Origin: Patescibacteria group bacterium | GTDB taxonomy: Bacteria; Patescibacteriota; Patescibacteriia; 2-02-FULL-49-11 | Assembly (NCBI GenBank): GCA_041645165.1 | Contig: JBAZQN010000001.1 | Coordinates: forward strand, 1-51,970 | DNA length: 51,970 nt | Direction: 5' to 3' | In this document: positions 5,014 through 32,426 of the stretch, one piece after another | How positions within the stretch are numbered: the first letter of the stretch is position 1 | Layout: each line of letters begins with the position of its first letter | Made by a program: the position numbers and the translations under genes | Notes under the pieces: model-generated | The model's input: only the letters and a program-made list of their open reading frames with translations | Told to the model about the DNA's origin: nothing | The model's database searches: none

Positions 5014-5029
5014 GTGCGAGGCATGTCTG

Positions 5030-5163
5030 TATAAAAAGACGCGGTTGTCCCGCCCTGCGAGCGGGACACCGCTCGGCTCTCGGGTTCGCTCCTCCGACGT
5101 GGCGTCGGAGACCGTGCCCGCTCACCCTCCGAGACGCTTTTTATTGCAGCCACTCCTCGCTTG
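5030..5163 (+). repeat. Structured direct repeat, family D, copy 1
   Basis: ATAAAAAGACGCGGTTGTCCCGCCCTGCGAGCGGGACACCGCTCGGCTCTCGGGTTCGCTC...GAGACGCTTTTTATTGCAGCCACTCCTCGCTTG. Nearly identical to 5607-5735 except for the central hairpin. Confidence 0.85.
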
Positions 5164-5302
5164 GGGGGATATAGGAAATCGGTTTCGTGACGGTCTGGAA
5201 AAGACATTACTTCGTATACTAAAAAGTAGGGGGAGAGAAGGTAGGTAACCATTTAGCAATTTAATGTAAAGGTCCATTGTAAAATAATTATTCTCATTAT
5301 GT

Positions 5303-5584
5303 ATGAATACCTTAAGTTATAAAGTTACCGGTTGGACCGTGTCAGTGTTTTCAGTGTTGAGCTATGCCTTATGTTTCCTCTGGGCGTATACGCTGGCGGG
5401 CGATTTGAGAGAAATGCATGTGAATTGGCTGCGGATGGCGTATTTGAAATTTGCCGGACTTGATGTGATGAGTTTTTTGTCAGGACTTGTGCAGACGTTT
5501 GTGTGGGCATGGATTGCGGTGATCGCGTTTGTCTGGTTGTGGAACAGGTTTTACCATAAGTTCGAGAAGACGGGGACAGCATAG
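5303..5584 (+). CDS. Small integral membrane protein (93 aa, about 3 TM)
   Basis: Hydrophobic segments VSVFSVLSYALCFLWAY, FLSGLVQTFVWAWIAVIAFVWLW. The gene is flanked by the two family D repeats. Confidence 0.55.
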   Translation: MNTLSYKVTGWTVSVFSVLSYALCFLWAYTLAGDLREMHVNWLRMAYLKFAGLDVMSFLSGLVQTFVWAWIAVIAFVWLWNRFYHKFEKTGTA

Positions 5585-5606
5585 GAGAGGCGCTCGGAGT
5601 GTTTGC

Positions 5607-5735
5607 ATAAAAAGACGCGGTTGTCCCGCCCTGCGAGCGGGACACCGCTCGGCTCTCGGGTTCGCTCTCCCGCTTCGCGGGATCCGTGCCCGCTCACCCT
5701 CCGAGACGCTTTTTATTGCACCCACTCCTCGCTTG
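5607..5735 (+). repeat. Structured direct repeat, family D, copy 2
   Basis: Same 5' and 3' blocks as 5030-5163. The central hairpin is TCCCGC-TTC-GCGGGA instead of CTCCGACG-TGG-CGTCGGAG. Confidence 0.85.
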
Positions 5736-5753
5736 AGGTTAAGAGTTGAAGCT

Positions 5754-5786
5754 GCGAGGGTGTTCACGAACGCACATCCTCGCTTG
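5754..5786 (+). repeat. Hairpin repeat, family E, copy 1
   Basis: GCGAGGGTGTTCACGAACGCACATCCTCGCTTG, identical to 5871-5903. Confidence 0.8.
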
Positions 5787-5870
5787 GGAAAATTAGGAAG
5801 ATCCATACCCGCGGAATCTCCGAGACACTTTCCTTCACAGGCAATCCTCACTTGGGGGGAGTAAAGAGTT

Positions 5871-5903
5871 GCGAGGGTGTTCACGAACGCACATCCTCGC
5901 TTG
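5871..5903 (+). repeat. Hairpin repeat, family E, copy 2
   Basis: Identical 33-mer to 5754-5786. The stem is GCGAGG/CCTCGC. Confidence 0.8.
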
Positions 5904-13733: not shown

Positions 13734-13802
13734 TGCCGTTGTAGCTCCACCGCTGGAGCGGGGCAGGCAGTTGGTACCCCGCAAATGCGGGGCATGGTAA
13801 GG
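13734..13802 (+). other. tRNA-Thr 5'-half-like fragment interrupted by GC hairpins
   Basis: GCCGTTGTAGCTC[caccgctggagcggggcaggc]AGTTGGTA[ccccgcaaatgcgggg]CATGGTAAGGA. The capitals are identical to the 13934-14009 tRNA. Confidence 0.6.
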
Positions 13803-13933: not shown

Positions 13934-14009
13934 GCCGTTGTAGCTCAGTTGGTAGAGCAACTCCATGGTAAGGAGTAGGTCGTCGGTTCAATTCCGACCA
14001 ACGGCTCCA
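13934..14009 (+). tRNA. tRNA-Thr (anticodon GGT), CCA encoded
   Basis: Acceptor GCCGTTG/CAACGGC, anticodon stem ACTCC/GGAGT with loop ATGGTAA, and T arm GTCGG-TTCAATT-CCGAC. Confidence 0.9.
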
Positions 14010-14030: not shown

Positions 14031-14197
14031 GCAGCTCCACCGCTGGAGCGGGGCAGGCAGGCATGGTAAGTCCCGCCGCACAATATTTATTGTAAAAATA
14101 ATGAAGGCGGGATCCCGCCAAGGCGGGAGAAGTAGGTCCCCCGCACAATGCGGGGCAACGGCTCCAGATTTTTTCAGAGCTGCAAAGACAGCTCCAC
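14031..14197 (+). other. tRNA-Thr-derived mosaic, with a 42-bp direct repeat of the tRNA 3' end and trailer
   Basis: AGCTC[same insert]..CATGGTAAG[60-nt insert]AGTAGGTC[ccccgcacaatgcgggg replacing the T arm]CAACGGCTCCA. The stretch 13999-14040 is repeated at 14156-14197 with one mismatch. Confidence 0.65.
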
Positions 14198-16376: not shown

Positions 16377-18497
16377 ATGCACAGACATGGTATCTTGTTT
16401 TCTAAACCGACTATTATTTCCTTTTTAGCAATTTTAAGCATTGCTGGTATCGCAGTTTATGTGATCCAAACAAAAGAGCAGGGCCAAGTTGCCGGCGTCT
16501 GTTCCGCAAAATCAGTAACTTCCACCAGCTTCATCAAAACTTTTCACTTGCTTGATTTAACTGACGGTTTTGACATTTCATTCACTAAAGATGGCGGATA
16601 TTTGCTGACCGGCGACATTCTTCCGGCCTCTGGCATGGGAGCGCCAAAACCTTATATTATCCAAACCGATACTAAGGGGAATCCACTATGGAGCAGGCAG
16701 TTTAGCAGTAAAAGCATGGCTCTTGGGCTGATGTCGTCCCGGCGGATCGGGCGTCTCGCTCTAGAGACGATTGACGGCAATATTGTCACGGCCATCGATG
16801 TACTGGATTTTGTTGATGAAAACGTGAAAGAACTCTATGGCGATATTTTGGTGACCAAAATTAGTAAAAAGGGAACGCAGCTCTGGTCATTGATGCTTGG
16901 CGATTATAGTATAGATCGTCCGCAAAAAATATGGGCTTTATCGGATGGCGGTGTGTTGCTCCTTGCCCGTTTCATGCAAACCGGTTATGGCACTGATGTA
17001 GGCGATACTGATGCAGTGCCCAAGTATAGCGTTTTAATAAAAATTGATAAAAACGGGAAAGTGCAATTTGCAAAAAAATTGAATTGGGAAGCAGAGGATG
17101 TGCAATATTTAGCTGATGGCAGTTTTATCGCCTTGGCCAATATTGTTGTTCCAAAAACTGAACAGCCAGAAAATATTTTGGGGCAGGAGTTGGTTCCGCA
17201 CGCCTTGCCGACCGTTATAAAACTGGACAGTGATTTTAAAGTGGCGTGGGCGAAGAGCCTTGAGATGATTCCGTCGGAGATAAATGCTCCCACCAGTTAT
17301 TCTGGCAGCAGTTTTACCATGGGAAAAACCGCTATCCGCATGCCGGGCGGTGACTTTAGGGCGGTTCAGCCTGTGCCCGACGGCGGTTTTATTGCGTTCG
17401 GTTTTGGCGATTTAAGTCTAATTTCGGGGCTGATGACGGGATCAGCCAATACTATCAATAGTTTTTCCGCGCGATCATTGATCGCGGTCAAGGTCGATAA
17501 GGTAGGGAATTACAAATGGGCAAAAAAATTAACTGTAAATATGACCTCTAGCCCATCAAGTAATGATTTTCAGGTGATAAAAACTTTGGACGATTATTTT
17601 GTGATTATGCAGGATGTGGTGCGCGAGAGCGCAAAGGTGCAAGCGGCTGATTTTAATTTATCGCCAGAGGCATTGGCCTCAAATATTGAATTGATTAAAA
17701 CTGATGTCGATTTTAATCCGATGTGGGTGAAAAAAATTAATGCGGAACGGGATTTGTCAGGCTATGGCATCGCGCCGACAGCCGATAAGGGAGTTGTGAT
17801 TGCCAGCAGTATGCTCACCACTAAACAGCATATAGTAATGATGAGTCTGGAACCATATAAGGAGGCGGCTTTGATAAAAGTTGATGTCAATGGCGAGGTG
17901 CGCGGATGTCCCGGAGTAACGGATTACCGCGGGGCAACGGTGGAAGACCAAAGCAGCTATTTGGTGATGCAAAGTATGCAGGTCGATGGGGCTGAAAATA
18001 TGACGTTGCCTATTAATAAAAAGGTAAAAGAAAAGGTTTTCCTCATAAAAAATACGGCGCGAGACATTTGTAAATATCAAAAAAGTAGCGTAGCGCCAAA
18101 TTGTTCCGTTTCCCTACCGCTGACGTCAGGTCAGACAGTCACGCCGCCCACGCCCAAAACCTGGGCGCTGATCGGCTATGGAAACACCAAAGAAGTCGCA
18201 GTAGACGGCGAGAAGAACCAGGCTGTTCATAAAGAATTACTGCCAATACTTAACCAAATTTTCAATAACCAGGTGAAATTAAAAGATAGCATGAAAAGCA
18301 TGTGGCTCACCTATGTGTTCCCACGTCAGGTGACGCGCTCGGACGTGGAAGTCGTGCAGAAAAAATATGAGGAACTGGGCTACAAGATTGACCAGTCAGA
18401 AGGAGGCGTGCTGTGGGTTTCCAAGATTGGACTGACATTGCATCTGATTTTCTCTATTCAAAATTCCATGGTTGGAAAATTAGAAGTGTTATTTTAA
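16377..18497 (+). CDS. Large anchored/secreted repeat protein, beta-propeller-like (706 aa)
   Basis: N-terminal TM segment. Then recurring units of about 50-60 aa with DGG[YVF]-type strands and G-x3-W-x-K/R-x-L motifs (NPLWSRQF, TQLWSLML, KVQFAKKL, KVAWAKSL, YKWAKKL, NPMWVKKI). Visibly AT-richer than the flanks. Confidence 0.65.
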   Translation: MHRHGILFSKPTIISFLAILSIAGIAVYVIQTKEQGQVAGVCSAKSVTSTSFIKTFHLLDLTDGFDISFTKDGGYLLTGDILPASGMGAPKPYIIQTDTKGNPLWSRQFSSKSMALGLMSSRRIGRLALETIDGNIVTAIDVLDFVDENVKELYGDILVTKISKKGTQLWSLMLGDYSIDRPQKIWALSDGGVLLLARFMQTGYGTDVGDTDAVPKYSVLIKIDKNGKVQFAKKLNWEAEDVQYLADGSFIALANIVVPKTEQPENILGQELVPHALPTVIKLDSDFKVAWAKSLEMIPSEINAPTSYSGSSFTMGKTAIRMPGGDFRAVQPVPDGGFIAFGFGDLSLISGLMTGSANTINSFSARSLIAVKVDKVGNYKWAKKLTVNMTSSPSSNDFQVIKTLDDYFVIMQDVVRESAKVQAADFNLSPEALASNIELIKTDVDFNPMWVKKINAERDLSGYGIAPTADKGVVIASSMLTTKQHIVMMSLEPYKEAALIKVDVNGEVRGCPGVTDYRGATVEDQSSYLVMQSMQVDGAENMTLPINKKVKEKVFLIKNTARDICKYQKSSVAPNCSVSLPLTSGQTVTPPTPKTWALIGYGNTKEVAVDGEKNQAVHKELLPILNQIFNNQVKLKDSMKSMWLTYVFPRQVTRSDVEVVQKKYEELGYKIDQSEGGVLWVSKIGLTLHLIFSIQNSMVGKLEVLF

Positions 18498-18572: not shown

Positions 18573-18643
18573 GAATTCCAGTTCTAACATCGTCCACGAT
18601 GCCCTGAATTTACATGGCAATAACCCAGAGGTAACGTCTCTGG
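18573..18643 (+). repeat. tRNA-Trp 3'-end-derived repeat R1 (att-like) with hairpin
   Basis: 18602-18634 matches 16293-16325 (tRNA-Trp 3' end plus trailer) at 32 of 33 positions. 18573-18606 is identical to 19159-19192. Confidence 0.8.
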
Positions 18644-18734: not shown

Positions 18735-19076
18735 ATGCATAAAACTAAAATTATTTCCGGATTTTTGATTTTTGAATTAATTTACACACTCATCAACATA
18801 TTACCAGAGCTATTAGTCACATTTGATCCTTCACAACTTATTTATTATGCACGTCTTTTCTTTATCCTAGCACTTTTATTGAGCGCCATAGGGATATATT
18901 TTCAAAAAAAATGGGCAGTTATCTCTCTTTGGATATATATACTTCATCCATTATTGATAGGATACTCGTTATATGTTGGCTTTGGTGGGTATTATTATAT
19001 AGTTGTTATCAATACAGCCATTGTCACATATTTGTCAGTTACTTGGAATTTATTTAGTAAAAAAGGTAATGTTTAA
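18735..19076 (+). CDS. Small polytopic membrane protein (113 aa), very AT-rich
   Basis: Three to four hydrophobic segments. I recognised no family. Confidence 0.5.
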   Translation: MHKTKIISGFLIFELIYTLINILPELLVTFDPSQLIYYARLFFILALLLSAIGIYFQKKWAVISLWIYILHPLLIGYSLYVGFGGYYYIVVINTAIVTYLSVTWNLFSKKGNV

Positions 19077-19158: not shown

Positions 19159-19223
19159 GAATTCCAGTTCTAACATCGTCCACGATGCCCTGCCATATTT
19201 CACCCCGATTCTTGGGGTGTTTT
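19159..19223 (+). repeat. tRNA-Trp 3'-end-derived repeat R2 plus terminator-like hairpin
   Basis: GAATTCCAGTTCTAACATCGTCCACGATGCCCTG is identical to R1. It is followed by CACCCC-GATTCTT-GGGGTG-TTTT. Confidence 0.75.
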
Positions 19224-19347: not shown

Positions 19348-21174
19348 ATGTCATTAATCGAACGACGTATGAAAAATGTTAAACCGACGACGCGCATACT
19401 AGCGGCATTTTTTATTATACTTGGCATAGCAGGGATGATTGCCTTACGGTATGCGATAAAAGTGTCGAACGATAAAAAAACAAATACCGATAGCCTCACC
19501 ATCAGTTTCAATAATCAAGGGTTGGTTCCTTTCGATACCATGGTAATCGAGGGCAAGAACCTTGATCCCCATGCTGCCACCTCCGTTATTTTTGATACGT
19601 ATACCAAGCAGACGCTCACTATACCGGCATTGAACGTGACGCCGACGACCGTGACCGTCGCGGTGCCGCCGCTCGCATTTAATAAAAATTCCGGCAAGTT
19701 CGGCCTTGATGTCGTGTCGTTCAGAGTTATTCAGGCAAAAAAAGATGGCGATACGTTGGCTGTCAAGTCCTCAAACACAGTGTCGGGCATTCAAGTGCTG
19801 GCCCCGGCGGTCCCGCGTGCCGTACAGATGGCACGCGCACAAGATCTGCCACCAGGCACGATCACGCGGGCATTTGCCGCCATGGCGCTCAAGAGCATTG
19901 ATTCATTGGCAGACCAGGCGCCGGTAGAAAACAAAGCATTAACTGCGTCGCTTGCCAACGCCCGCACGGAGATGGAACGCTTGCGTTCAGGCCTGGATGC
20001 ATTTATAAAAAATCCCCACACTACAGTTCGCCTTCAAACAGCCACAGGATCAACGGTAGCATTAAGCGCGGCGCAGATTGCCTGGCTCGACGCATTTTAT
20101 TCCGGCTTCCTTGGATCAATTGAGAAAAGCCAGCTGCAGGGGGAAGAAAAGAATTCGTTTTCTTTGAGTCCCGCCGCCATGGCGGCAGAGACAGATTGCT
20201 GGAGTCTTGGGGAGTCGGAACATGTTACCGCCGCGACGATCACCCGTCAGCTGGATTGCCTCTATAAAAAAACGTTCATCGATCAGGCCGGAAAAACAGA
20301 CGAAGAGATAACGACCGAAGCAAATGAATTGATGAAAAAACATCTGATACTGTTGGGGAGTATTAGTCTTGCCCTGGCCACGGGCGGGTTGAGTCTTGAG
20401 GCGCAGATTGCATATGGCATTACGTATTCCCTGGTGATGGAGTACCTGGTGAACAACAAGAATCCCGGTGTAAATTCCATTCCCGATGTCGGGGCAACCG
20501 TTATCGACACGATTCTAAAAACGCCCGCGGTGTTTCCCATCACCGGACTTTTCGTCGGCGTGTTAACCGCGTGCGATGAAGAATGCAAAAAAAATCCAAA
20601 GGCATGTTATACGTCCGATATTCTTATTACGGACCCTTTGAATCTGCGGGATTTATTATTTATAAAATATGGCACCCTTGACCATGACGTAGACCGATTC
20701 AAAACTCCGGAGGAATTTGAATCGTATTTGTATGGTGACAAAGGGATTGATAGCGGCGGCTATGAAACGGTGATCCCTCCGGCTCCGGTGCCGACTCCCT
20801 CTCCTACGCCGACGCCAACACCTGCCCCGGAACCTACACCACAACCAACGCCATCGCCGGCTCCCATAACCCCGGAACCGATCATCGATATAGTTCCCAC
20901 CCCTGCACCGACACCCACGCCGGTGCCGCCAGGCCCGAAATGTTCCCAACTGAAACAAACTGCGTATGATCAATGTGTTGCCGGCTGTGGCAATTCACAA
21001 GATTGCTACAGTGCCTATAGCGACTGCACGCCTGGGTGTGAGGGCACGGGAAATCTTTTTACCAAATCAGACTGTATAAACTCCTGTCTCGGGACGTTAT
21101 CAAAATGCACCGGAGCGGTATCAAAATGCAATGCTGATTGTTTGAAAGCCGAATATGCGTACACCTGTCCTTAA
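19348..21174 (+). CDS. Anchored surface protein with Pro/Thr linker and C-terminal Cys-rich module (608 aa)
   Basis: N-terminal TM segment, then an Ig/IPT-like stretch (MVIEGKNLDPHAATSVIFD...TVTVAVPP). The PT-rich linker is PPAPVPTPSPTPTPTPAPEPTPQPTPSPAP. The last 78 aa carry 12 Cys, including four CxxxC motifs. Confidence 0.65.
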   Translation: MSLIERRMKNVKPTTRILAAFFIILGIAGMIALRYAIKVSNDKKTNTDSLTISFNNQGLVPFDTMVIEGKNLDPHAATSVIFDTYTKQTLTIPALNVTPTTVTVAVPPLAFNKNSGKFGLDVVSFRVIQAKKDGDTLAVKSSNTVSGIQVLAPAVPRAVQMARAQDLPPGTITRAFAAMALKSIDSLADQAPVENKALTASLANARTEMERLRSGLDAFIKNPHTTVRLQTATGSTVALSAAQIAWLDAFYSGFLGSIEKSQLQGEEKNSFSLSPAAMAAETDCWSLGESEHVTAATITRQLDCLYKKTFIDQAGKTDEEITTEANELMKKHLILLGSISLALATGGLSLEAQIAYGITYSLVMEYLVNNKNPGVNSIPDVGATVIDTILKTPAVFPITGLFVGVLTACDEECKKNPKACYTSDILITDPLNLRDLLFIKYGTLDHDVDRFKTPEEFESYLYGDKGIDSGGYETVIPPAPVPTPSPTPTPTPAPEPTPQPTPSPAPITPEPIIDIVPTPAPTPTPVPPGPKCSQLKQTAYDQCVAGCGNSQDCYSAYSDCTPGCEGTGNLFTKSDCINSCLGTLSKCTGAVSKCNADCLKAEYAYTCP

Positions 21175-25239: not shown

Positions 25240-28200
25240 ATGTTCAACAAAATATCTACATGGTGGTCAGGAGGACCGGTGAAGCGAGCCGTACTCGTCG
25301 GCGGAACGCTCTTGGTCGTGGGGGTTGCTGCGGCATCCCTTTTTTATTCCTCTTCTCGTCTGATCGCGCCCGGCGATGTCTTCACTCGCGACACCAGGGA
25401 TCTCTTTGAAGGATTCACCCGGCTCGTATTGTCAGGGGCAAACGCGCAGGACAACTTTGAGCTCAAGGCAATTGCATCGGACAGCCTGGGGGTGGAGCCT
25501 TCCTCCGCCTATCTGCTTACCAGCAAGGAAGATATTGAGACAGCGGACGTGGGGGAAAGCATCCGGGTGACACCTGATGCGAAGTTTTTTTTGACTAAGA
25601 GAGCGGCGAAAGAATGGCTCCTCGCCTTAACAGAGCCGCTGTCGCCCAATACACTGTTCAAGGTGGCGCTCGCCGCATCATATCAGGACGCGGGAGGGGA
25701 GGACCAGACGCGGGATTATGAATGGGCGTTTCAGGTGAAGGATTCCTTCAAGGTGCTCCACAGCATTCCGCGCGACGCGGCAACGAGCGTCCCTTTGAAT
25801 TCCGGCATTGAAGTGACCTTCAGCCATGACAATTTTATTGACTATGAGCGGTTCGTCACGATCACGCCGCGGGCAACCGGCAAGTTTGAAAAACACGGCC
25901 GCACGCTGGTCTTTGTGCCGGAGGCTCTCTCTCCCGCCCAGGTGTATACGGTGACCGTAAAAAAAGGGCTGCCGCTGCAAGGGAGCGGTGAAACGCTTGC
26001 CGAGGACTACTCGTTTGCGTTTGAAACGCAAGTTACCGCAGACTCATTCTCGCCCGACGCGCCCTGGTTCAGGATTTACCAGAAACTCCAGGATGTGAGC
26101 ACTACTGAACCTCCTCTGATACAGCTCTCCGCGAGGAACATGAAGGATAATGCGGTTGAAGTGGCCGTCTATCCTTTAAGCAGTGAAGCAGAATACCTGC
26201 AAATGCTCGACCGCCGCGACCAGCTGCCGTGGTGGGCGTATTCAAAGGATTATTATTTGGATGATACGTCGAGCCGAAAGGCGCTCACCTCATTTAAAGC
26301 GCCAATCCAGGAAGAGGAAAATGTGCAGTTTGTGCGTTTCACGGGGAGCCTGCCGCCGGGATACTTTTTGGCAGAACTTAAGAACGGCGACCTGCGCGAT
26401 CAGGTATGGATTCAAGTGACTGACGCTGCTGCGTACGTGAATGTGGCGAAAAACCAAACCGTCGTCTGGGCAATAGATTTGGCCGCGAAGCGGCCTGTGG
26501 CAGGCGCCCGGGTGGAGCTCATCGGCACGGGCAAGGCATTTTCCGCCAATAGCCAAGGAGTTGCGGTGTTTGCCACGCCGCGAGAATTGGTGGACGCTTC
26601 ATCCCGTCAGCAGGAGCGCAAGCGCTATTATTTTAAGGTGAGCTTTGCCGACAAGGAGCTGATTATCCCCGCGACGTATCTTTCCCGCAGCTATGGCTAC
26701 TGGAATGACAGCGGCGCGGTTGAATACTGGAAATACCTCTATACCGACCGTCCCCTGTACCAGCCGACGGATACGATAAAATTTTGGGGGCTTCTGAAGC
26801 GGCGCGACGAGGGACGCGTTGCTGATAATGTTACGTTGACGTTGTATAAAGAGGGATACGTTGATTACTATTATCGGCCAGTGGTGATTAAAGAACAGGC
26901 GCTTGAGATAGATAATCTCGGCGCTTTTACCGGGGAAATAGCTATCAAGGATTTGCGCGCCGATTCTTATTCATTGGAGCTTAAAGTCGGCGATGAAGTC
27001 ATTGAGCAAAAATATATACAGATCAGGCCGTACGATAAGCCCGCGTATCAGCTCAGCCTTATTCCAAGCAAGAAAGTTGAATTTGCGGGCAATGCCATCA
27101 CGCTGGAAGCGCAGGCTTCGTTCTTTGAAGGTACCGCAGTGCCTGATTTATCCCTGGTGTTTGAAACGCCGGAAGGCAAAAAAACGGTCGTCACGGACGC
27201 GGAGGGGAAAGTGAAGCTCACCTACACCAAGGATTATCATGAGTGCAAGAGCGATTACCGCTGCTGGCCGGAATATGCATGGTTGAAAATCAGTCCCGAG
27301 CTTTCTGAAATCGCGGAAATCGAGGCAAGTGCCAATCTTTATTTTTACGGGCCTAAAGCGTACGCCACCAGCAAGGTTAGTTATCCCGCCAAGGGGCGCG
27401 GCAAGGTGGAAGTGGCGGTGAGTTCGATTGATTTGGACAAAGCCGAAGACGGATATTGGCGCCTCGATGACGAAAAAGAGAGAGCGCCGAGCGCCGGTAC
27501 GAAAATAGAAGGCGAGATTATAAAAATTACGCATAGCAGTACGGAAATAGGCACGGGGTATGATTTTATCAACAAGCGCACATATAAGAAATATTCATAT
27601 TCCACACATGAAGAAAAGGTGGATTCCTTCAGCGGTGTCACGGACGGCTTTGGCAAATATGTATACGAACGTAATATTGAGCCGGAAACATCGTATCAGG
27701 TCAAACTGAAATATTATGACGCCAACGGCAGGCATGATATCCAATCTGCGTATTTATACTACTATGACGGCGCGCATTTGAATCGCTACGGAGGGGCTGG
27801 TTATAATTTTTACCACCTTCAGATCCCGGAGGATAATGCGTTTTCCATGGGGGAGCAGGTCGTGGTTGATTTCGCCAATAACGACGAGAGCTTGCCGGAT
27901 AACGGGAATAATTACTACCTTTATCTGCAGTATCAAAACGGTTTTCAGGAATATGCAACTTCCCAGACTTCCGAATATTCGTTTCCTTTTGAAGCGCGGG
28001 ACATTCCCAATGTGAACCTGTCGGGAGTGTATTTCAATGGAGAAACGTTTATCGTGGCGGGAACAGGATGGGTCGGCAATTCCATCCAGTATGACACTGA
28101 TGATAAAACCCTGCAGATTGAAATCGTGCCGGATAAGAACCAGTACAAACCGGGCGAGGAAGTAGCGCTCAAGGTCACCACGCGCGACGCGCGCGGCCAG

Positions 28201-30651
28201 CCTGTGTCGGCGGCGGTCAATCTGAATCTGATTGATGAGGCGTTTTACGCCGTCATGGACAGCCAAGCGAGCCCCATAGATTCGATTTACGAAGGCTTGT
28301 GGTCAGGATCCGTATTTTCTGCCTATTCACACCGCCGTCCCGAGAACCAGTTCGGCGGCGCGGAGAAAGGCGGTTGTTTCTTGGCAGGCACACAGATTTT
28401 GATGGCTGATGAGAGCCTTAAAAATATTGAAGACGTCGAGGCGGGCGATGAAATACTCACGCTCGAGGATCCGCGCACGAATAAAAAAGTGAGCAGCACC
28501 GTGACTGAGCTCTATTATCACGTGGTCAGCCACTACCTTGTCATTAATCACGAGTTAAAGGTGACGCCGGAGCATTTGGTATATGCGAATCTGGGATTTA
28601 CGCCTGCGGGTGATTTAAAAGAGGGAGACTGGATGCTTAAAGAGGACGGGGAGCATGTGTTTGTCACTTCTCTTGAAGCGGTGCGAGAGGTGGTGCCGGT
28701 CTATAATTTAAAGGTAGAACCGCAGCATACGTATTTCGCGGACGGATATTTTGTCCATAATGAGAAAGGCGGCGGCCCGAGGGAATTTTTTACCGATGCC
28801 GCGCTCTTTAAAACCGTCGCCACGGACGGCCGCGGCCAGGCGCGCATGTCGTTTACCCTGCCTGACAATATCACCTCGTGGCGCGTGACCGCCCAAGGGT
28901 TAAGCTCCGGCCTTGACGTCGGGGTGAGCGTGTCCAAGATTCCCGTTTCATTGCCAGTCTTTATCGAAGCGACCATAGGAAAGGAATATTTAGCAGGCGA
29001 TGAACCAGTGGCGCGCCTGCGTTCATTCGGCGACTCCCTGATGCGAGGCGATCCCGTCACTTTGAGCCTGACGGCGCCGGAATTGGGCATTGCCGATCCG
29101 CAGGTGAAACAGTCACAAGCCTTTGTCCCGGAATTCTTCCCATTGCCGAAATTGACGCGCGGCACGTACGTGGTGACCTATTCGCTCGATGCAGCAAGCA
29201 AAGGCAAAGATGCGGTGAAGCTGCCTTTGGAAGCGGTTGGCTCAAGACTTACGGTGCAGTCGGTGCAGACCCAGGATGCCACGGAGGGCTTTGTGTTATC
29301 AAATACGACCAGCCATCCCATGGCCATTATTTTTAGCGATAAGCAACGCAGTGCGGTCTTTAGTACGTTACAATGGCTATCCTGGTCATGGGGCGATAGA
29401 ATAGACCAAGGCCTGGCCCGCACGATCGCCCCGAAGATGCTCAATGAAACGTTCGGCGTAAACAGGAGCGTACCGGAGTTTGCCGCTTCGCAGTACCAAG
29501 TCTCAAGCGGGGGATTGACGTTGCTGCCCTACAGCAGCGAAGACTTGGAGCTCTCCGCACGTGTTGCTGACTTGCACGTTTCAGGATTTGATGAAAATTC
29601 TCTGACCCAATATTTCTTCCGCAAGCTTGAGAATAATAAAAGCAATAAAGAAGAGGTAACGCTTGCGCTCTATGGGTTAGCCGCCCTGCAGCAGCCGGTG
29701 TTGCCGAGGCTCCGGGCGTGGCTCGAGCGGGATGATTTGACGGTACGGGAGAGGTTGTATGCAGCCCTTGCGGCCTATGCGCTCGGTGACGGAGAACAAG
29801 CCAGGTCCCTTTACCGCGATATAATGAATCAGTACGGACAAATCAAAGAGCCGCATATCATTATCAAGGCCGGAGATTCAGATGATGAAATATTAAATAA
29901 TACGGCCTTGACTGCAGTGCTCGCGTCCTATTTGAACGAACCGCAGCAGTACGGCTTGTGGGGTTACCTGCGCTTCAATCGTCCTCAAGAGATATTGCTG
30001 TATTTGGAAGAGTTAAATTTTGTCAAAGCCAATCTGGCGCGTTTGGTAAACAAACCGGCGAGTGTCGAATTTCAAGTGAACCAAGACGCGGTGACCGCCG
30101 CGCTTGACCGCCCGCGTTTTAGCTATGCGTTCGAAATGCAACCCGGTGATGCGCTGAAGGTGATAAAGTCTGCGCCTGACATGGTTATCACTGCGAATAC
30201 CCCGCTCCCTTTGGCAGAAAGCGGATTGGAAGCAGATTCTGACATCAGTATCCGTCGGGAGTATTATGTGAATGGGCAAAAGACCACTACCTTCAACGAG
30301 AATGACTTAGTGGAGGTTCGGTTGATGCCGGAGTTTAAAGGCGGGGCGCTTGACGGCAATTACCAAATAACCGATATTCTGCCCTCGGGATTGCTGCCGG
30401 TCACCAAGCTGTACCGCGGCGGCGGTGGCTCTGATTGCCATTATTGGTACCCTTACCATCGTGAAGGGCAAAAGGTTAAATACATGATTAATAAGAACTG
30501 GCGCAGCACATACTGCGGCGGATCCTACATTATATATTACGCCAGAGTGAAGACGAAGGGCTCGTATCTCGCGGAACCCGCAGTCATCCAGTCGGTGCTC
30601 AATCCTGATTTTATGAACTTTACCGGCGAGGATAAAGTAATGATTAAGTAA
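25240..30651 (+). CDS. Membrane-anchored alpha-2-macroglobulin-family protein (thioester-less) with embedded Hint domain, 1803 aa
   Basis: - N-terminal TM segment and a bacterial Ig-like (SbsA/Big_5-like) domain.
- MG2-type motif YTDRPLYQPTDTIKFWG.
- A2M_N_2-like motif IVPDKNQYKPGEEVALKV...NLIDEAFY.
- A2M-domain motif REFFTDAALFKTVATD...LPDNITSWRVTA.
- No CxEQ motif anywhere downstream. Confidence 0.8.
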   Translation: MFNKISTWWSGGPVKRAVLVGGTLLVVGVAAASLFYSSSRLIAPGDVFTRDTRDLFEGFTRLVLSGANAQDNFELKAIASDSLGVEPSSAYLLTSKEDIETADVGESIRVTPDAKFFLTKRAAKEWLLALTEPLSPNTLFKVALAASYQDAGGEDQTRDYEWAFQVKDSFKVLHSIPRDAATSVPLNSGIEVTFSHDNFIDYERFVTITPRATGKFEKHGRTLVFVPEALSPAQVYTVTVKKGLPLQGSGETLAEDYSFAFETQVTADSFSPDAPWFRIYQKLQDVSTTEPPLIQLSARNMKDNAVEVAVYPLSSEAEYLQMLDRRDQLPWWAYSKDYYLDDTSSRKALTSFKAPIQEEENVQFVRFTGSLPPGYFLAELKNGDLRDQVWIQVTDAAAYVNVAKNQTVVWAIDLAAKRPVAGARVELIGTGKAFSANSQGVAVFATPRELVDASSRQQERKRYYFKVSFADKELIIPATYLSRSYGYWNDSGAVEYWKYLYTDRPLYQPTDTIKFWGLLKRRDEGRVADNVTLTLYKEGYVDYYYRPVVIKEQALEIDNLGAFTGEIAIKDLRADSYSLELKVGDEVIEQKYIQIRPYDKPAYQLSLIPSKKVEFAGNAITLEAQASFFEGTAVPDLSLVFETPEGKKTVVTDAEGKVKLTYTKDYHECKSDYRCWPEYAWLKISPELSEIAEIEASANLYFYGPKAYATSKVSYPAKGRGKVEVAVSSIDLDKAEDGYWRLDDEKERAPSAGTKIEGEIIKITHSSTEIGTGYDFINKRTYKKYSYSTHEEKVDSFSGVTDGFGKYVYERNIEPETSYQVKLKYYDANGRHDIQSAYLYYYDGAHLNRYGGAGYNFYHLQIPEDNAFSMGEQVVVDFANNDESLPDNGNNYYLYLQYQNGFQEYATSQTSEYSFPFEARDIPNVNLSGVYFNGETFIVAGTGWVGNSIQYDTDDKTLQIEIVPDKNQYKPGEEVALKVTTRDARGQPVSAAVNLNLIDEAFYAVMDSQASPIDSIYEGLWSGSVFSAYSHRRPENQFGGAEKGGCFLAGTQILMADESLKNIEDVEAGDEILTLEDPRTNKKVSSTVTELYYHVVSHYLVINHELKVTPEHLVYANLGFTPAGDLKEGDWMLKEDGEHVFVTSLEAVREVVPVYNLKVEPQHTYFADGYFVHNEKGGGPREFFTDAALFKTVATDGRGQARMSFTLPDNITSWRVTAQGLSSGLDVGVSVSKIPVSLPVFIEATIGKEYLAGDEPVARLRSFGDSLMRGDPVTLSLTAPELGIADPQVKQSQAFVPEFFPLPKLTRGTYVVTYSLDAASKGKDAVKLPLEAVGSRLTVQSVQTQDATEGFVLSNTTSHPMAIIFSDKQRSAVFSTLQWLSWSWGDRIDQGLARTIAPKMLNETFGVNRSVPEFAASQYQVSSGGLTLLPYSSEDLELSARVADLHVSGFDENSLTQYFFRKLENNKSNKEEVTLALYGLAALQQPVLPRLRAWLERDDLTVRERLYAALAAYALGDGEQARSLYRDIMNQYGQIKEPHIIIKAGDSDDEILNNTALTAVLASYLNEPQQYGLWGYLRFNRPQEILLYLEELNFVKANLARLVNKPASVEFQVNQDAVTAALDRPRFSYAFEMQPGDALKVIKSAPDMVITANTPLPLAESGLEADSDISIRREYYVNGQKTTTFNENDLVEVRLMPEFKGGALDGNYQITDILPSGLLPVTKLYRGGGGSDCHYWYPYHREGQKVKYMINKNWRSTYCGGSYIIYYARVKTKGSYLAEPAVIQSVLNPDFMNFTGEDKVMIK
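28375..28761 (+). other. Hint / bacterial-intein-like (PT-HINT-like) autoprocessing domain within the A2M-like CDS (aa 1046-1174)
   Basis: Block A is CFLAGTQILM (Cys1). Block B is TPEH. Blocks F/G are VYNLKVEPQHTYFADGYFVHN. The next residue is Glu, not Cys/Ser/Thr. There is no endonuclease domain. GAGAAAGGCGG occurs at 28363-28373 and 28762-28772. Confidence 0.8.
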
Positions 30652-30653
30652 TC

Positions 30654-32426
30654 ATGCGCAAACGTTGGGTCATAATAATATTGTTCGTTTTGGCGGGGGC
30701 GCTGCTTTTGAGCGCCCTCGCAATGTTCAGCGGCCGGAAGCGTCCGGAGGTGAGCGCTGTGGATCTGAAGTCTGCGTTGCCTGTCATCGCCTCACAGCCG
30801 ATGTTTTTCGAGTTTGATAATTTTCAAAACGCCCTCGCGCGCGCTCAAGCAATTGCCCCGCGTGCGGATATACACGCGGTGGTCGTCCCGCAGCATTTAC
30901 TCGCGTCCTCATTGATTGCAGCACAAATAAAACGGGCAAGCGGCAGGCGTATCACCTCCGTGGCCATTATCGGCCCCAATCATTTCAACGCAGGGGTGGA
31001 GCGCATCGCCTCCGCTGCGGCTGTGTGGCAGACCGAATTCGGGGAGGCAACGTCAGACTCGGCGCTTACCTCAAAATTCATCAGTGATTTTGGGTTGCTG
31101 GGCGATGCGGAGGTTTTTGCGAATGAGCACGCCATAGGGGCAGTAGTCCCGTTTGTGAAATACTATCTTCCGGAAGCAAAAATCCTGCCAATTGTATTTA
31201 ATTCCTACGCCACGCTGCAGGATGCGGAAAAGGTGAGCGCCTGGCTTGCGGATAACCTTCCCCGTGACAGCTTGGTCATCTACTCGATTGACTTTTCACA
31301 TTACCTGCCCAGAGAAGAGGCGGATCTGAAAGATATTGAAACCAGAGCGTTCATCGAAGGCGCGCAGGTAAGCCGGATTATGGCGCTGGGCAATGACCAT
31401 CTTGACTCACCGGCCAGTTTGGCTGCCGCGCTCCTGTATGCCGATAAGAAGAACCTGCGCGCCGATATCGTCGCGACAAAAAATTCCGATGACTTCAGCA
31501 TTGAGCGTACACAGGAAACGACCAGTTATTTTATCATCACCTTTTCTCCCGATGATGCGCCTGAAAAACGCAAGGCGGCGACTTTGTTATTCGCGGGGGA
31601 TGTCATGCTTTCGCGCGCCGTCGGAGACGCCATGATCCTCCGGAAGGATTGGTGCTGGCCCTTCAGGCTCTCATCCGCATATACTCGCAAAGCGGATATT
31701 TTTTTCGGCAATTTGGAGGGCCCCATTTCAGCGAGAGGCAAGAGCGTCGGCAGCCCTTACCCCTTCAGAGCCGACCCCAAGGCGGCGGAAGGGCTCTCGT
31801 GCGCCGGGTTTGACGTGATGTCGGTGGCGAATAATCACATCGGGGATTGGAGCAGGGCTGCCGCAGAGGACACGTTCCGCATATTACAAGAAAATAATAT
31901 CGCGTATGCCGGGGGCGGATTTGATGTGTCAGAGGCGCATGCCGCGAAAGTAATAGAAGCGAATGGCGCCAAGTTTGGTTTCCTGGCGTATACGCCTTAT
32001 GCCCCCCGATCGATAATTGCATCTGAACACGAATCGGGGGTGGCCGCATTTTCCGTCACCGGCATGGTTGATGACATAAAAGCCGCGAAAATAGCATCCG
32101 ATGCGGTTATTGTTTCTTTGCATTTCGGCGACGAGTACGCGCGAGCAGAAAATGCAAATCAGCGCAATTGGGCCCATGCAGCCATAGACGCAGGAGCGAA
32201 ACTGGTCATTGGCCATCATCCGCACGTGGTACAGCGCGTGGAACAATACAAAGACGGGTACATCGCCTATAGCCTCGGTAATTTTGTGTTTGACCAGACA
32301 TTTTCTTCCCATGTCATGGAAGGGCTCCTGCTCAAAGTGGTATTTGAGCGCGGCGAGATTGCGAGCATCGCGCAGATTAAGGTGGAAATATCGAATAGTT
32401 TTCAGGCGATAATTGCGCAGGAATGA
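30654..32426 (+). CDS. Membrane-anchored fusion: Memo/AmrB-like domain plus CapA-type (PGA_cap) metallophosphoesterase domain
   Basis: The N-terminal half has VVPQH, IIGPNHF, NEHAIGAVVPFV and SIDFSHYL (Memo-like order of motifs). The C-terminal half has LLFAGDVML, FGNLEGP, SVANNHIGD, LHFGDEY, GHHPHVVQ and YSLGNFVFDQ (CapA-like). The start lies 3 nt after the A2M-like stop. Confidence 0.75.
   Translation: MRKRWVIIILFVLAGALLLSALAMFSGRKRPEVSAVDLKSALPVIASQPMFFEFDNFQNALARAQAIAPRADIHAVVVPQHLLASSLIAAQIKRASGRRITSVAIIGPNHFNAGVERIASAAAVWQTEFGEATSDSALTSKFISDFGLLGDAEVFANEHAIGAVVPFVKYYLPEAKILPIVFNSYATLQDAEKVSAWLADNLPRDSLVIYSIDFSHYLPREEADLKDIETRAFIEGAQVSRIMALGNDHLDSPASLAAALLYADKKNLRADIVATKNSDDFSIERTQETTSYFIITFSPDDAPEKRKAATLLFAGDVMLSRAVGDAMILRKDWCWPFRLSSAYTRKADIFFGNLEGPISARGKSVGSPYPFRADPKAAEGLSCAGFDVMSVANNHIGDWSRAAAEDTFRILQENNIAYAGGGFDVSEAHAAKVIEANGAKFGFLAYTPYAPRSIIASEHESGVAAFSVTGMVDDIKAAKIASDAVIVSLHFGDEYARAENANQRNWAHAAIDAGAKLVIGHHPHVVQRVEQYKDGYIAYSLGNFVFDQTFSSHVMEGLLLKVVFERGEIASIAQIKVEISNSFQAIIAQE

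Follow-up and report, generated by a model that had tools for sequence, protein, structure and literature searches.

The window analysed here, that is, the whole stretch of 51,970 nucleotides (nt) from contig JBAZQN010000001.1 of a Patescibacteria group bacterium (assembly GCA_041645165.1), contains a gene for a thioester-less alpha-2-macroglobulin (A2M)-like surface protein of 1803 amino acids (aa). The protein is encoded by a single long open reading frame (ORF) at positions 25240..30651, and the features of this gene described below lie, like the gene downstream of it, on the forward strand. Inside it, at the place that alignments equate with the bait region of known A2Ms, lies a Hint domain of the type-A bacterial intein-like (BIL) kind, 129 aa long and running from Cys1046 to Asn1174 (28375..28761). 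A protease-cut bait together with a buried thioester defines the A2M family, and intein-like domains are usually seen as selfish elements or toxin-releasing devices. Patescibacteria are ultra-small and spend their lives attached to other microbes, a contact that their giant surface proteins are believed to mediate. Our analysis indicates that an intact BIL has been retained at the bait of a thioester-less A2M-like protein throughout Patescibacteria.

Pfam analysis of the 1803-aa protein identified matches to Big_5, MG2, A2M_BRD, PT-HINT, A2M and bMG10. A hydrophobic signal-anchor, read off the translation, is present at the N-terminus (VKRAVLVGGTLLVVGVAAASLFY, approximately aa 15-37; 25282..25350), and from it most of the protein is predicted to be extracellular. 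The A2M_BRD segment (PF07703, aa 863-1004, 44.5 bits; 27826..28251) supplies the final macroglobulin (MG)-type strands ahead of the bait loop. These beta-strands have a predicted local distance difference test score (pLDDT) of about 90 in an AlphaFold2 (AF2) model of aa 850-1300, which was built with 54 homologs and has a mean pLDDT of 83. The start of the A2M domain (PF00207, aa 1188-1246; 28801..28977) is preceded by Arg1181 and Asp1186, both of which are invariant in homologs with and without the Hint domain. A helical region resembling a thioester domain without the thioester cysteine (approximately aa 1368-1599; 29341..30036) was recognised from AF2 helices and Foldseek. It is followed by a C-terminal MG10-like domain (aa 1669-1790; 30244..30609), whose Pfam bMG10 score of 23.5 bits is below the cut-off of 26.2 and which the host family profile aligns to residues 1265-1607 of ECAM, the E. 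coli yfhM product. The same profile matched ECAM with an E value of 2e-26 and the Salmonella A2M with 6e-21, and it also matched TEP1, human A2M, C5 and CD109. The MG array, bait-region domain, thioester-like domain and C-terminal MG domain that characterise the A2M/thioester-protein superfamily were all found.

Among 94 family members (P0001-P0094), the CxEQ (C[GLA]EQ) thioester motif appeared in none near the thioester-domain position. Cysteine occurs in the window protein only at positions 669, 675, 1046, 1733 and 1759, leaving none between 1047 and 1732, and a classical thioester was rejected for the host on these two observations. Because of them, the host is a thioester-less A2M in the 'Type II' sense (PMC5764988): the CXEQ of Type I is absent and a bait region without a thioester is present. 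The six-gene mag operon of Type II proteins is not found around the gene, whose neighbours are MltG/YceG upstream and Memo-CapA downstream. A second AF2 model, covering aa 1176-1803 (28765-30648), reached a pLDDT of 91.7 and comprised MG domains, the helical thioester-like domain (model residues 193-424) and a C-terminal MG domain; its best Foldseek matches were ECAM and the Salmonella A2M. This model superposed on protease-activated ECAM with a TMq of 0.61 (4ZIQ) or 0.59 (4RTD) and on native ECAM or the Salmonella A2M with 0.31-0.32, and the likeness of the modelled C-terminal half to activated ECAM may have arisen because the N-terminal half was absent from the model.

Residues 1046-1174 read CFLAGTQILM...TPEH...VYNLKVEPQHTYFADGYFVHN and are followed by EKGGGPREFF. 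A preliminary description of this DNA had recognised the Hint hallmarks (Cys1, TPEH and a terminal His-Asn), with Glu at the +1 position and no homing endonuclease, and the translation carries all of them at the residues given there. Cys1046 (28375..28377) is Hint residue 1, invariant in homologs, and the predicted nucleophile of an N-to-S acyl shift. Block B is represented by TPEH, from Thr1109 to His1112 (28564..28575), with histidine in 63/63 homologs and threonine in 61, serine taking its place in two. The terminal His1173-Asn1174 (28756..28761), invariant in informative homologs, forms the C-junction at which a succinimide is predicted. Residue +1 is Glu1175, no homing endonuclease family was matched in the Pfam scan, and 129 aa is too short to house one.

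The PT-HINT (PF07591) match to aa 1058-1174 scored 48.6 bits with the whole protein as query and 54.3 with the segment alone, against a cut-off of 27.7. Weaker matches over the same residues were found for Hom_end_hint, Intein_splicing, Hint and Vint, and the NCBIfam intein C-terminal model TIGR01443 scored 17.7 bits against a cut-off of 15.6 with the isolated segment. Comparison of the whole protein with Protein Data Bank (PDB) sequences gave the C. thermocellum BIL as the best match (2LWY; E 1e-11, aa 1046-1168), with Tetrahymena BIL2 (6Y75/6TMM; E 2e-8) second and RecA mini-inteins (~3e-4) third. In the aa 850-1300 model the Hint domain has a pLDDT above 90, and Foldseek aligned it with 2LWY (TM-score 0.84, rmsd 2.3, 34% identity) and 6Y75 (TM-score 0.77-0.81); the Hint flanks returned human A2M, A2ML1, C3, C5, CD109 and ECAM. 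Two of the checks proposed earlier, profile searches for the domain borders (A2M_BRD 863-1004, PT-HINT 1058-1174, A2M 1188-1246) and structure comparison, which returned the BIL structures 2LWY and 6Y75, came out in favour of the assignment. Segment 1046-1174 is confirmed as a Hint fold of the BIL type: the PT-HINT cut-off is passed, the Hint fold is recovered by AF2 and Foldseek, and the N-terminal Cys with block-B TxxH, the C-terminal His-Asn and the non-nucleophilic +1 residue of type-A BILs are all present. A location in a hypervariable region of a non-conserved protein, which is also a mark of BILs, was not found; the loop is variable, but the host family and the site are conserved.

The linker ahead of the Hint domain (aa 1017-1045; 28288..28374) is irregular and bait-like, ends in GGAEKGG with Gly1045 at the -1 position, and has no regular secondary structure in the AF2 model, where the stretches aa 1031-1042 and 1177-1185 have pLDDT values below 50. 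Residues 731-808 of human A2M (6TAV) align with residues 1180-1256 of the window protein. With human residue 731 opposite residue 1180, and with the human bait at residues 690-728 (UniProt P01023), the end of the Hint domain falls a few residues ahead of the post-bait motif. Alignment of ECAM to the family profile equates the strand before the Hint domain with ECAM 854-909 and the region after it with 975-1037 (Val1193 being ECAM Val975), and linker aa 1017-1045 corresponds to ECAM ~910-955, including the disordered bait 923-942. The ECAM bait is disordered at Arg923-Leu942, and its cleavage frees Arg956, Gly958 and Asn963, which bind the C-terminal MG domain and drive activation (PMC4498604). 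Extending our alignment without gaps places these three residues opposite Asn1174, Lys1176 and Arg1181. The Hint domain ends seven residues before the invariant Arg1181, which opens the next MG domain, and a disordered stretch of about 30 residues remains ahead of it. Judged from these alignments, the Hint domain is at the C-terminal edge of the bait region. Its bait-equivalent placement between an A2M_N_2-like segment and the A2M domain, proposed in the preliminary description, holds on the Pfam order and on the human A2M and ECAM alignments alike.

Three overlapping homolog sets were used for the comparative analysis: 63 Hint-bearing proteins, 35 cluster representatives and 80 species-genome loci (79 informative). 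The loci came from a scan of one genome per species, in which at least 454 genome stretches, among the first 600 candidates, encode relatives. All of the best 80 of these at least 454 loci carry the Hint domain. The 63 Hint-bearing homologs have it at the same site, from 100% down to ~31% identity, and another 31 homologs, mostly more distant, are Hint-less and about 130 aa shorter. Insert-free alleles, which the preliminary description had proposed to look for among related genomes, were not found from 100% to ~35% identity; the Hint-less homologs are mostly more distant. Because the junction of Hint-less homologs reads GGAE[KRG]GG-[ED]G[GE][GS]-xRxDF, the Hint domain sits inside a conserved Gly-rich host loop. 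The record titles of the best 80 loci name Magasanik-, Uhr-, Falkow-, Peregrini-, Peri-, Gracili-, Collier-, Nomura-, Dojka-, Kerfeld-, Doudna-, Portnoy-, Specht-, Moran- and Saccharibacteria. Some loci (L004, L005, L011, L014, L020 and others) are titled 'uncultured Gammaproteobacteria' or 'Pseudomonadales bacterium', and the closest relatives of the window are among these; such titles look unreliable as taxonomy.

Conservation of the Hint domain is high in all three sets. Its length is 129 aa in 60/63, 35/35 and 70/80 sequences, Cys1 is found in 63/63, 35/35 and 80/80, and the terminal His-Asn in 63/63, 35/35 and 79/79 informative sequences. The block-B histidine is invariant in all informative sequences of the three sets (about 175 sequences, at ~30-100% host identity). 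One locus (L023) that looked like a decayed Hint was rejected, the cause being a run of N in its sequence. The Hint domain has a mean pairwise identity of 51% and the host one of 43%, with a correlation of r = 0.77 between the two, and the ratio of non-synonymous to synonymous divergence (dN/dS) against an 85% identical homolog is 0.19 for the Hint domain and 0.14 for the host. In a neighbour-joining (NJ) tree built from host sequence only, 59/63 Hint-bearing proteins fall into a single clade from which Hint-less members are absent, and three to four deep Hint-bearing lineages interleave with Hint-less ones; the crown clade is resolved and the deep backbone is not. The history of the domain may be a single gain followed by a few precise losses, or a few independent gains. 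Overall, the comparison of sequences points to an ancient acquisition that was inherited vertically under purifying selection.

The flanks of the Hint domain carry an 11-bp direct repeat, GAGAAAGGCGG, which occurs in the window only at 28363 and 28762, 399 nt apart. The upstream copy (28363..28373) covers the codons E-K-G-G of the N-side flank and the downstream copy (28762..28772) the codons E1175-K1176-G-G. When the codons of the gene were shuffled, a mean of 1.14 exact 11-mer pairs within 600 nt was obtained and at least one pair was present in 59% of cases; given the codon usage of the gene, the probability of identical codons for both EKGG copies is about 0.08. In homolog loci whose peptides here are identical or similar, the shared flank DNA shrinks to 8 nt in L001, whose protein is 66% identical, and to 4 nt in L002. 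The GC content of the Hint domain is 0.475 against 0.523 in the rest of the gene, which is the 14th percentile of same-size windows of the gene, and other segments are lower. The preliminary description had noted the repeats and an AT-richer insert, with their hints of a recent or mobile insertion. The repeats are present, but as an insertion trace they fail, being at chance level and decaying in homologs; the GC content is slightly lower, but the difference is marginal and no anomaly. Recent insertion with target-site duplication is ruled out by the shuffle test, the codon probability and the homolog DNA, and a compositional anomaly by the percentile within the gene; the domain instead is old, has been inherited vertically and shows more conservation than its host. 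The 11-bp repeat is a by-product of peptide motifs, partly the host AE[KR]GG, which is present in Hint-less homologs, and partly the HN|K-G-G of the Hint clade described below.

A separate observation concerns about 1 kb around the Hint domain (~28078-29110, aa 947-1290), where synonymous divergence from the 85% identical homolog (L085) is 0.19-0.37, against 0.4-1.2 in the rest of the gene. This tract may reflect recent recombination or an extra constraint at the nucleotide level.

Analysis of the residues at the junctions revealed a strong preference for acidic or amide residues at the +1 position. Among the 63 homologs this position is occupied by E (29), D (16), Q (11), T (2), A (2), G (2) and S (1); among 34 cluster representatives by D (24), E (4), Q (2), S (2), A (1) and T (1); and among the 80 genomes by E (31), D (31), Q (9), S (4), A (3) and N (2). 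Together E, D and Q account for 56/63, 30/34 and 71/80 sequences, serine or threonine for three, three and four, and cysteine never appears. Since the +1 residue is not a nucleophile, only cleavage or a BIL-type, nucleophile-independent ligation is possible. Glycine is found at the -1 position in 62/63, 34/34 and 77/80 sequences. A lysine follows the Hint domain at +2 or +3 in 34/34 and 79/79 sequences, and in 62/63 homologs at the position of the EKGGG lysine (+2, +3 or +6); in the window it is Lys1176 at +2 (codon 28765..28767). The lysine is missing at the corresponding position in 29/31 Hint-less homologs. The Hint-linked lysine at +2/+3 with glycine at -1, and the lack of that lysine in Hint-less homologs, are new observations.

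An exhaustive Hint profile search returned 41,873 representatives at E <= 1e-3, of which 773 also reach E <= 1e-30. The 150 best of them include single-copy Hint proteins; those examined with Pfam are all of the A2M type, and the remaining 109 newly retrieved proteins carry at least two Hint domains each. Junctions in these multi-Hint proteins, which hold the nearest non-A2M Hint domains, read ...GGGG|CF...VHN|KGG|CF...VHN|KGGG|CF..., with lysine at +1 in 145/209 domains and glycine at -1 in 102/209. 'GG|C...HN|K' is thus a hallmark of this Hint clade, and the EKGG...EKGG peptide repeat behind the DNA repeat derives partly from the host loop and partly from this hallmark.

The architecture of the other clade members was also recorded. 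Five proteins (P0124, P0136, P0139, P0148 and P0153) have a signal peptide ending in ...ARGGGG followed by three to five tandem Hint domains, with K-G, K-G-G or K-G-G-G linkers alone between them; after the Hint domains come a Gly-rich stretch, a transmembrane (TM) helix and a long C-terminal region, which in P0124 gives two Tim44-like domain matches in Pfam. Such lysine-plus-glycine spacers are hard to square with ordinary splicing of a functional host protein. Two further proteins (P0123 and P0127) have a type-IV-pilin-like N-terminus (FTxxE and a hydrophobic helix) with two to three Hint domains of the same clade at the C-terminus, and other members pair the Hint domain with PKD or cadherin-like/Big_9 domains.

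The Hint domain is very probably an active autoprocessing BIL. The reading that we favour, at a probability of roughly 45%, is that this type-A BIL would excise itself via a Gly1045 thioester and Asn1174 cyclisation and that the two halves of the host would be re-joined. After export and folding, Cys1046 would attack the Gly1045 carbonyl in an N-to-S acyl shift assisted by Thr1109 and His1112, giving a Gly-Gly thioester. Asn1174, helped by His1173, would form a succinimide and the Asn1174|Glu1175 bond would be cut. An amine in cis would then resolve the thioester, either the epsilon-amine of Lys1176, giving an isopeptide as in BIL2, or the freed alpha-amine of Glu1175, as has been suggested for type-A BILs. 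The 14-kDa Hint domain would be released, and the halves aa 1-1045 and 1175-1803 would be re-joined across the bait loop.

BILs lack a +1 nucleophile and those of type A have a His-Asn terminus (PMC4031507, PMC7664689). Type-A BILs can reportedly splice: a thioester forms, Asn cyclises and the amino group set free attacks the thioester, but most of the product is cleaved (PMC4031507). BIL2 follows an RGG motif and makes an isopeptide bond between a lysine epsilon-amine and a C-terminus (PMC8616854, PMC9200820).

Several points weigh against re-joining of the halves. BIL products are predominantly cleaved (PMC7664689), and according to one review A-type BILs are unable to ligate their flanks (PMC7765530). 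The conserved lysine could serve catalysis or electrostatics rather than act as a nucleophile, and it stands at +6 in two homologs. The Hint flanks have low confidence in the AF2 model, and autoprocessing in any family member is a prediction from sequence and model. Furthermore, because Hint-less homologs work with a plain Gly-rich loop, re-ligation would just restore the ancestral state and leave the strong conservation of the domain unexplained. Given active autoprocessing, we would put re-ligation in cis at a little under even odds, hydrolysis to two chains at about one in three and transfer to a foreign nucleophile at about one in seven.

A narrower proposal concerns the acceptor. The Hint domain might generate a thioester on the Gly-Gly backbone and hand it over to a lysine epsilon-amine, either that of the nearby invariant lysine (an 'isopeptide splice') or that of a foreign lysine; this we hold to be unlikely. 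If true, a thioester-less, Patescibacteria-wide family would have swapped the Cys-Gln warhead for an intein-derived one, and the 'GG|C...HN|K' clade, with thousands of members including the K-G-G tandem arrays, would be a prokaryotic extracellular counterpart of the Tetrahymena BUBL system.

Among the alternatives to excision with re-joining, cleavage alone survives best and is possible, if doubtful. The thioester would be hydrolysed and Asn1174 cyclised, releasing the Hint domain and leaving a two-chain macroglobulin in which an anchored N-chain ending at Gly1045 and a C-chain starting at Glu1175 are held together non-covalently. In this form the segment around Arg1181 would be released, so that the A2M conformational change would be triggered or preset with no protease involved, which is the 'self-triggered' behaviour of the preliminary description. 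BILs yield mainly cleavage products (PMC7664689, PMC4031507), the segment freed in ECAM drives activation (PMC4498604) and has its ungapped equivalents in Asn1174, Lys1176 and Arg1181, and the fragments of the thioester-less MagD remain associated after the bait is cut (PMC5764988). The family profile spans the C5 beta/alpha junction, and the process would parallel furin processing of C3/C4/C5 at the same topological site. The C-terminal half model is also nearer to activated ECAM (~0.6) than to native (~0.3), although this likeness may come from modelling half a protein. On the other hand, the chain would be split by a single cut, yet the chemistry of both junctions is invariant; the Hint-linked lysine and the -1 glycine are left unexplained; and a constitutively triggered trap seems useless as a protease inhibitor.

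Transfer in trans is quite improbable. Here the Gly1045 thioester would be attacked by a foreign lysine amine or hydroxyl, offered by a protease, a host-cell surface protein or the cell wall, so that the N-terminal half would become covalently linked to its target and the Hint domain would be the warhead that this family lacks. The absence of CxEQ from the family and of cysteine from the thioester-like domain fits such a role, as does the N-side flank, which ends in Gly-Gly like ubiquitin-like donors. BIL2 conjugates ubl4 to different substrates without ATP (PMC8616854), and Hedgehog Hint with cholesterol and BIL2 with ubiquitin-like domains offer analogies. The same Hint clade occurs in other surface proteins (pilin-like, PKD and cadherin-like), and A2M-like giant surface proteins of Patescibacteria have been associated with interaction with the host (PMC9793634). 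A thioester beside a conserved lysine in cis would, however, most likely be consumed in cis, there is no sign of shielding like that of a thioester domain, pure transfer does not need the invariant Asn129 of the Hint domain, and the whole proposal is inferential.

It is very improbable that the Hint fold is catalytically silent and has been retained in the bait loop for structure or binding. The adjacent termini of Hint folds make them tolerable as loop insertions, and processing is so far predicted only, but Cys1, the block-B Thr/His and the His-Asn are kept in about 175 sequences, and a silent module would be expected to lose them. Least credible of all is a selfish canonical mini-intein, recent and with a target-site duplication, standard four-step splicing and no host function: the weak Hom_end_hint, Intein_splicing and TIGR01443 matches, the flanking repeat, the slightly lower GC content, the few Hint-less proteins near Hint-bearing ones on the tree (P0061, P0063) and the ~1-kb tract of low synonymous divergence against P0002 would suit it, but Ser/Thr occupies +1 in at most 4/80, 3/63 and 3/34 sequences and Cys never, an endonuclease is missing, the domain is inserted in a variable loop rather than at a conserved catalytic site, the repeat does not exceed chance and decays in homologs, GC is at the 14th percentile, and the same site is used across most sampled Patescibacteria lineages by a Hint domain more conserved than its host.

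Excision with re-joining of the halves and its closest competitors would have different consequences. If the Hint domain cuts, the protein would be the first macroglobulin to activate itself and would parallel, in bacteria, the way C3/C4/C5 mature into two chains. If ligation goes via lysine, it would be a new bacterial post-translational cross-link and a possible ATP-free tool for protein conjugation. The lysine and Gly-Gly signature offers a simple sequence rule for finding related reactive modules.

Downstream of the A2M-like gene lies a gene for a protein of 590 aa (30654..32426), identified with Pfam as a Memo-like domain fused to PGA_cap (CapA) and having an N-terminal TM helix. A tblastn search found a Memo-like gene directly downstream in 52/83 related loci, including the Hint-less Gracilibacteria locus L003, and the A2M-like and Memo genes look like a conserved two-gene module. 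The Memo partner is on the same strand and lies within about 90 nt of the A2M-like gene or overlaps it (L001, 11414-12310; L002, 10635-11543; L003, 9871-10890; L085, 5931-7721). The Memo-PGA_cap/CapA fusion occurs in the window and in L085, and L002 has a CapA gene two genes upstream. For two ORFs upstream of the A2M-like gene in the window, 16377-18497 (706 aa) and 19348-21174 (608 aa), no Pfam family was matched at E <= 0.001.

Several repeats were observed elsewhere in the window. Intergenic direct repeats at 5024-5903 have a unit of about 145 nt, consisting of blocks 5024-5096 and 5112-5166; its second copy, at 5600-5672 and 5684-5738, is 95-96% identical, and a third one, at 5803-5857, is weaker. 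Another repeat, of 37 nt, lies at 5750/5867. The 3' part of tRNA-Thr(ggt) (13934-14009) and the sequence downstream of it are repeated at 14128-14197 (70 nt, 84% identity), and a 28-nt exact repeat is found at 13743 and 14033. The tRNA-Thr repeat may be an attachment-site-like remnant beside a Thr/Tyr/Thr/Trp tRNA cluster. A 34-nt exact direct repeat (18573-18606 / 19159-19192) flanks a small ORF at 18735-19076.

Sequences of this family are already in databases, under the public names 'polymorphic toxin-type HINT domain-containing protein' or 'Alpha-2-macroglobulin domain protein'. Searches of open-access full text found no paper with both 'macroglobulin' and 'HINT domain' or 'bacterial intein-like', and the earlier remark, that no A2M of this architecture was known to have been described, stands for the literature covered in this way. 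Work on Patescibacteria mentions A2M-like giant surface proteins without the Hint feature (PMC9793634). A polymorphic toxin system was rejected, as the A2M, thioester-like and MG10 domains follow the Hint domain and the next gene encodes Memo/CapA, with no toxin or immunity gene. A Hedgehog-type Hog domain was likewise rejected, because the Hint domain ends in His-Asn and the A2M domain comes directly after it.

Comparison with macroglobulins shows that ECAM/YfhM, the Salmonella A2M and the eukaryotic A2M/C3/C4/C5 are homologous along the length of the host and that the Hint site is their bait region; in C3/C4/C5 the bait-equivalent place holds the anaphylatoxin domain and the furin site. Unlike Type I A2Ms, the window protein has no CxEQ, no lipoprotein signal and no pbpC partner, and it carries a predicted self-processing domain at the bait end, replacing the protease-cut loop or standing beside it. 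It shares with MagD/YfaS (Type II) the MG architecture, the bait and a thioester-like domain without CXEQ. MagD traps the protease non-covalently and its bait-cleaved fragments stay together (PMC5764988). The window protein differs from MagD/YfaS in its Memo-like (and CapA-like) partner, the lack of the six-gene mag operon, the N-terminal TM anchor and the Hint domain.

Among the intein relatives, canonical class 1 mini-inteins (Mtu RecA) have the same fold and share blocks A, B and G. The window Hint differs from them in having no +1 Cys/Ser/Thr, a variable non-catalytic site and a non-sporadic spread, and it was rejected as a canonical intein on Glu1175 at +1 and on the clade of 59/63 proteins without a Hint-less member. 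An asparagine (VYN, Asn1156) is invariant in the Hint family and is also present in 2LWY; RecA-type inteins have the block-F Asp at the equivalent position. The BIL2 of Tetrahymena thermophila BUBL (6Y75/6TMM) has an (R)GG N-flank and a lysine acceptor, to which GG|C and the nearby invariant lysine of the window correspond. BIL2 differs in being eukaryotic and cytoplasmic, with ubiquitin-like flanks and 26% identity; in the window the lysine is a putative acceptor and the flanks are A2M-like halves. The type-A BIL of C. thermocellum (BIL4, 2LWY) shares Cys1, TxxH, His-Asn, a length of about 130 aa and an occurrence in secreted or surface proteins, and it is likewise without a +1 nucleophile or an endonuclease. 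Described BILs belong to hypervariable proteins that are not conserved, or precede toxin domains (PMC7765530). In contrast to these, the window Hint has a fixed site in a conserved A2M-like family, with no toxin after it, vertical inheritance and a conservation above that of its host.

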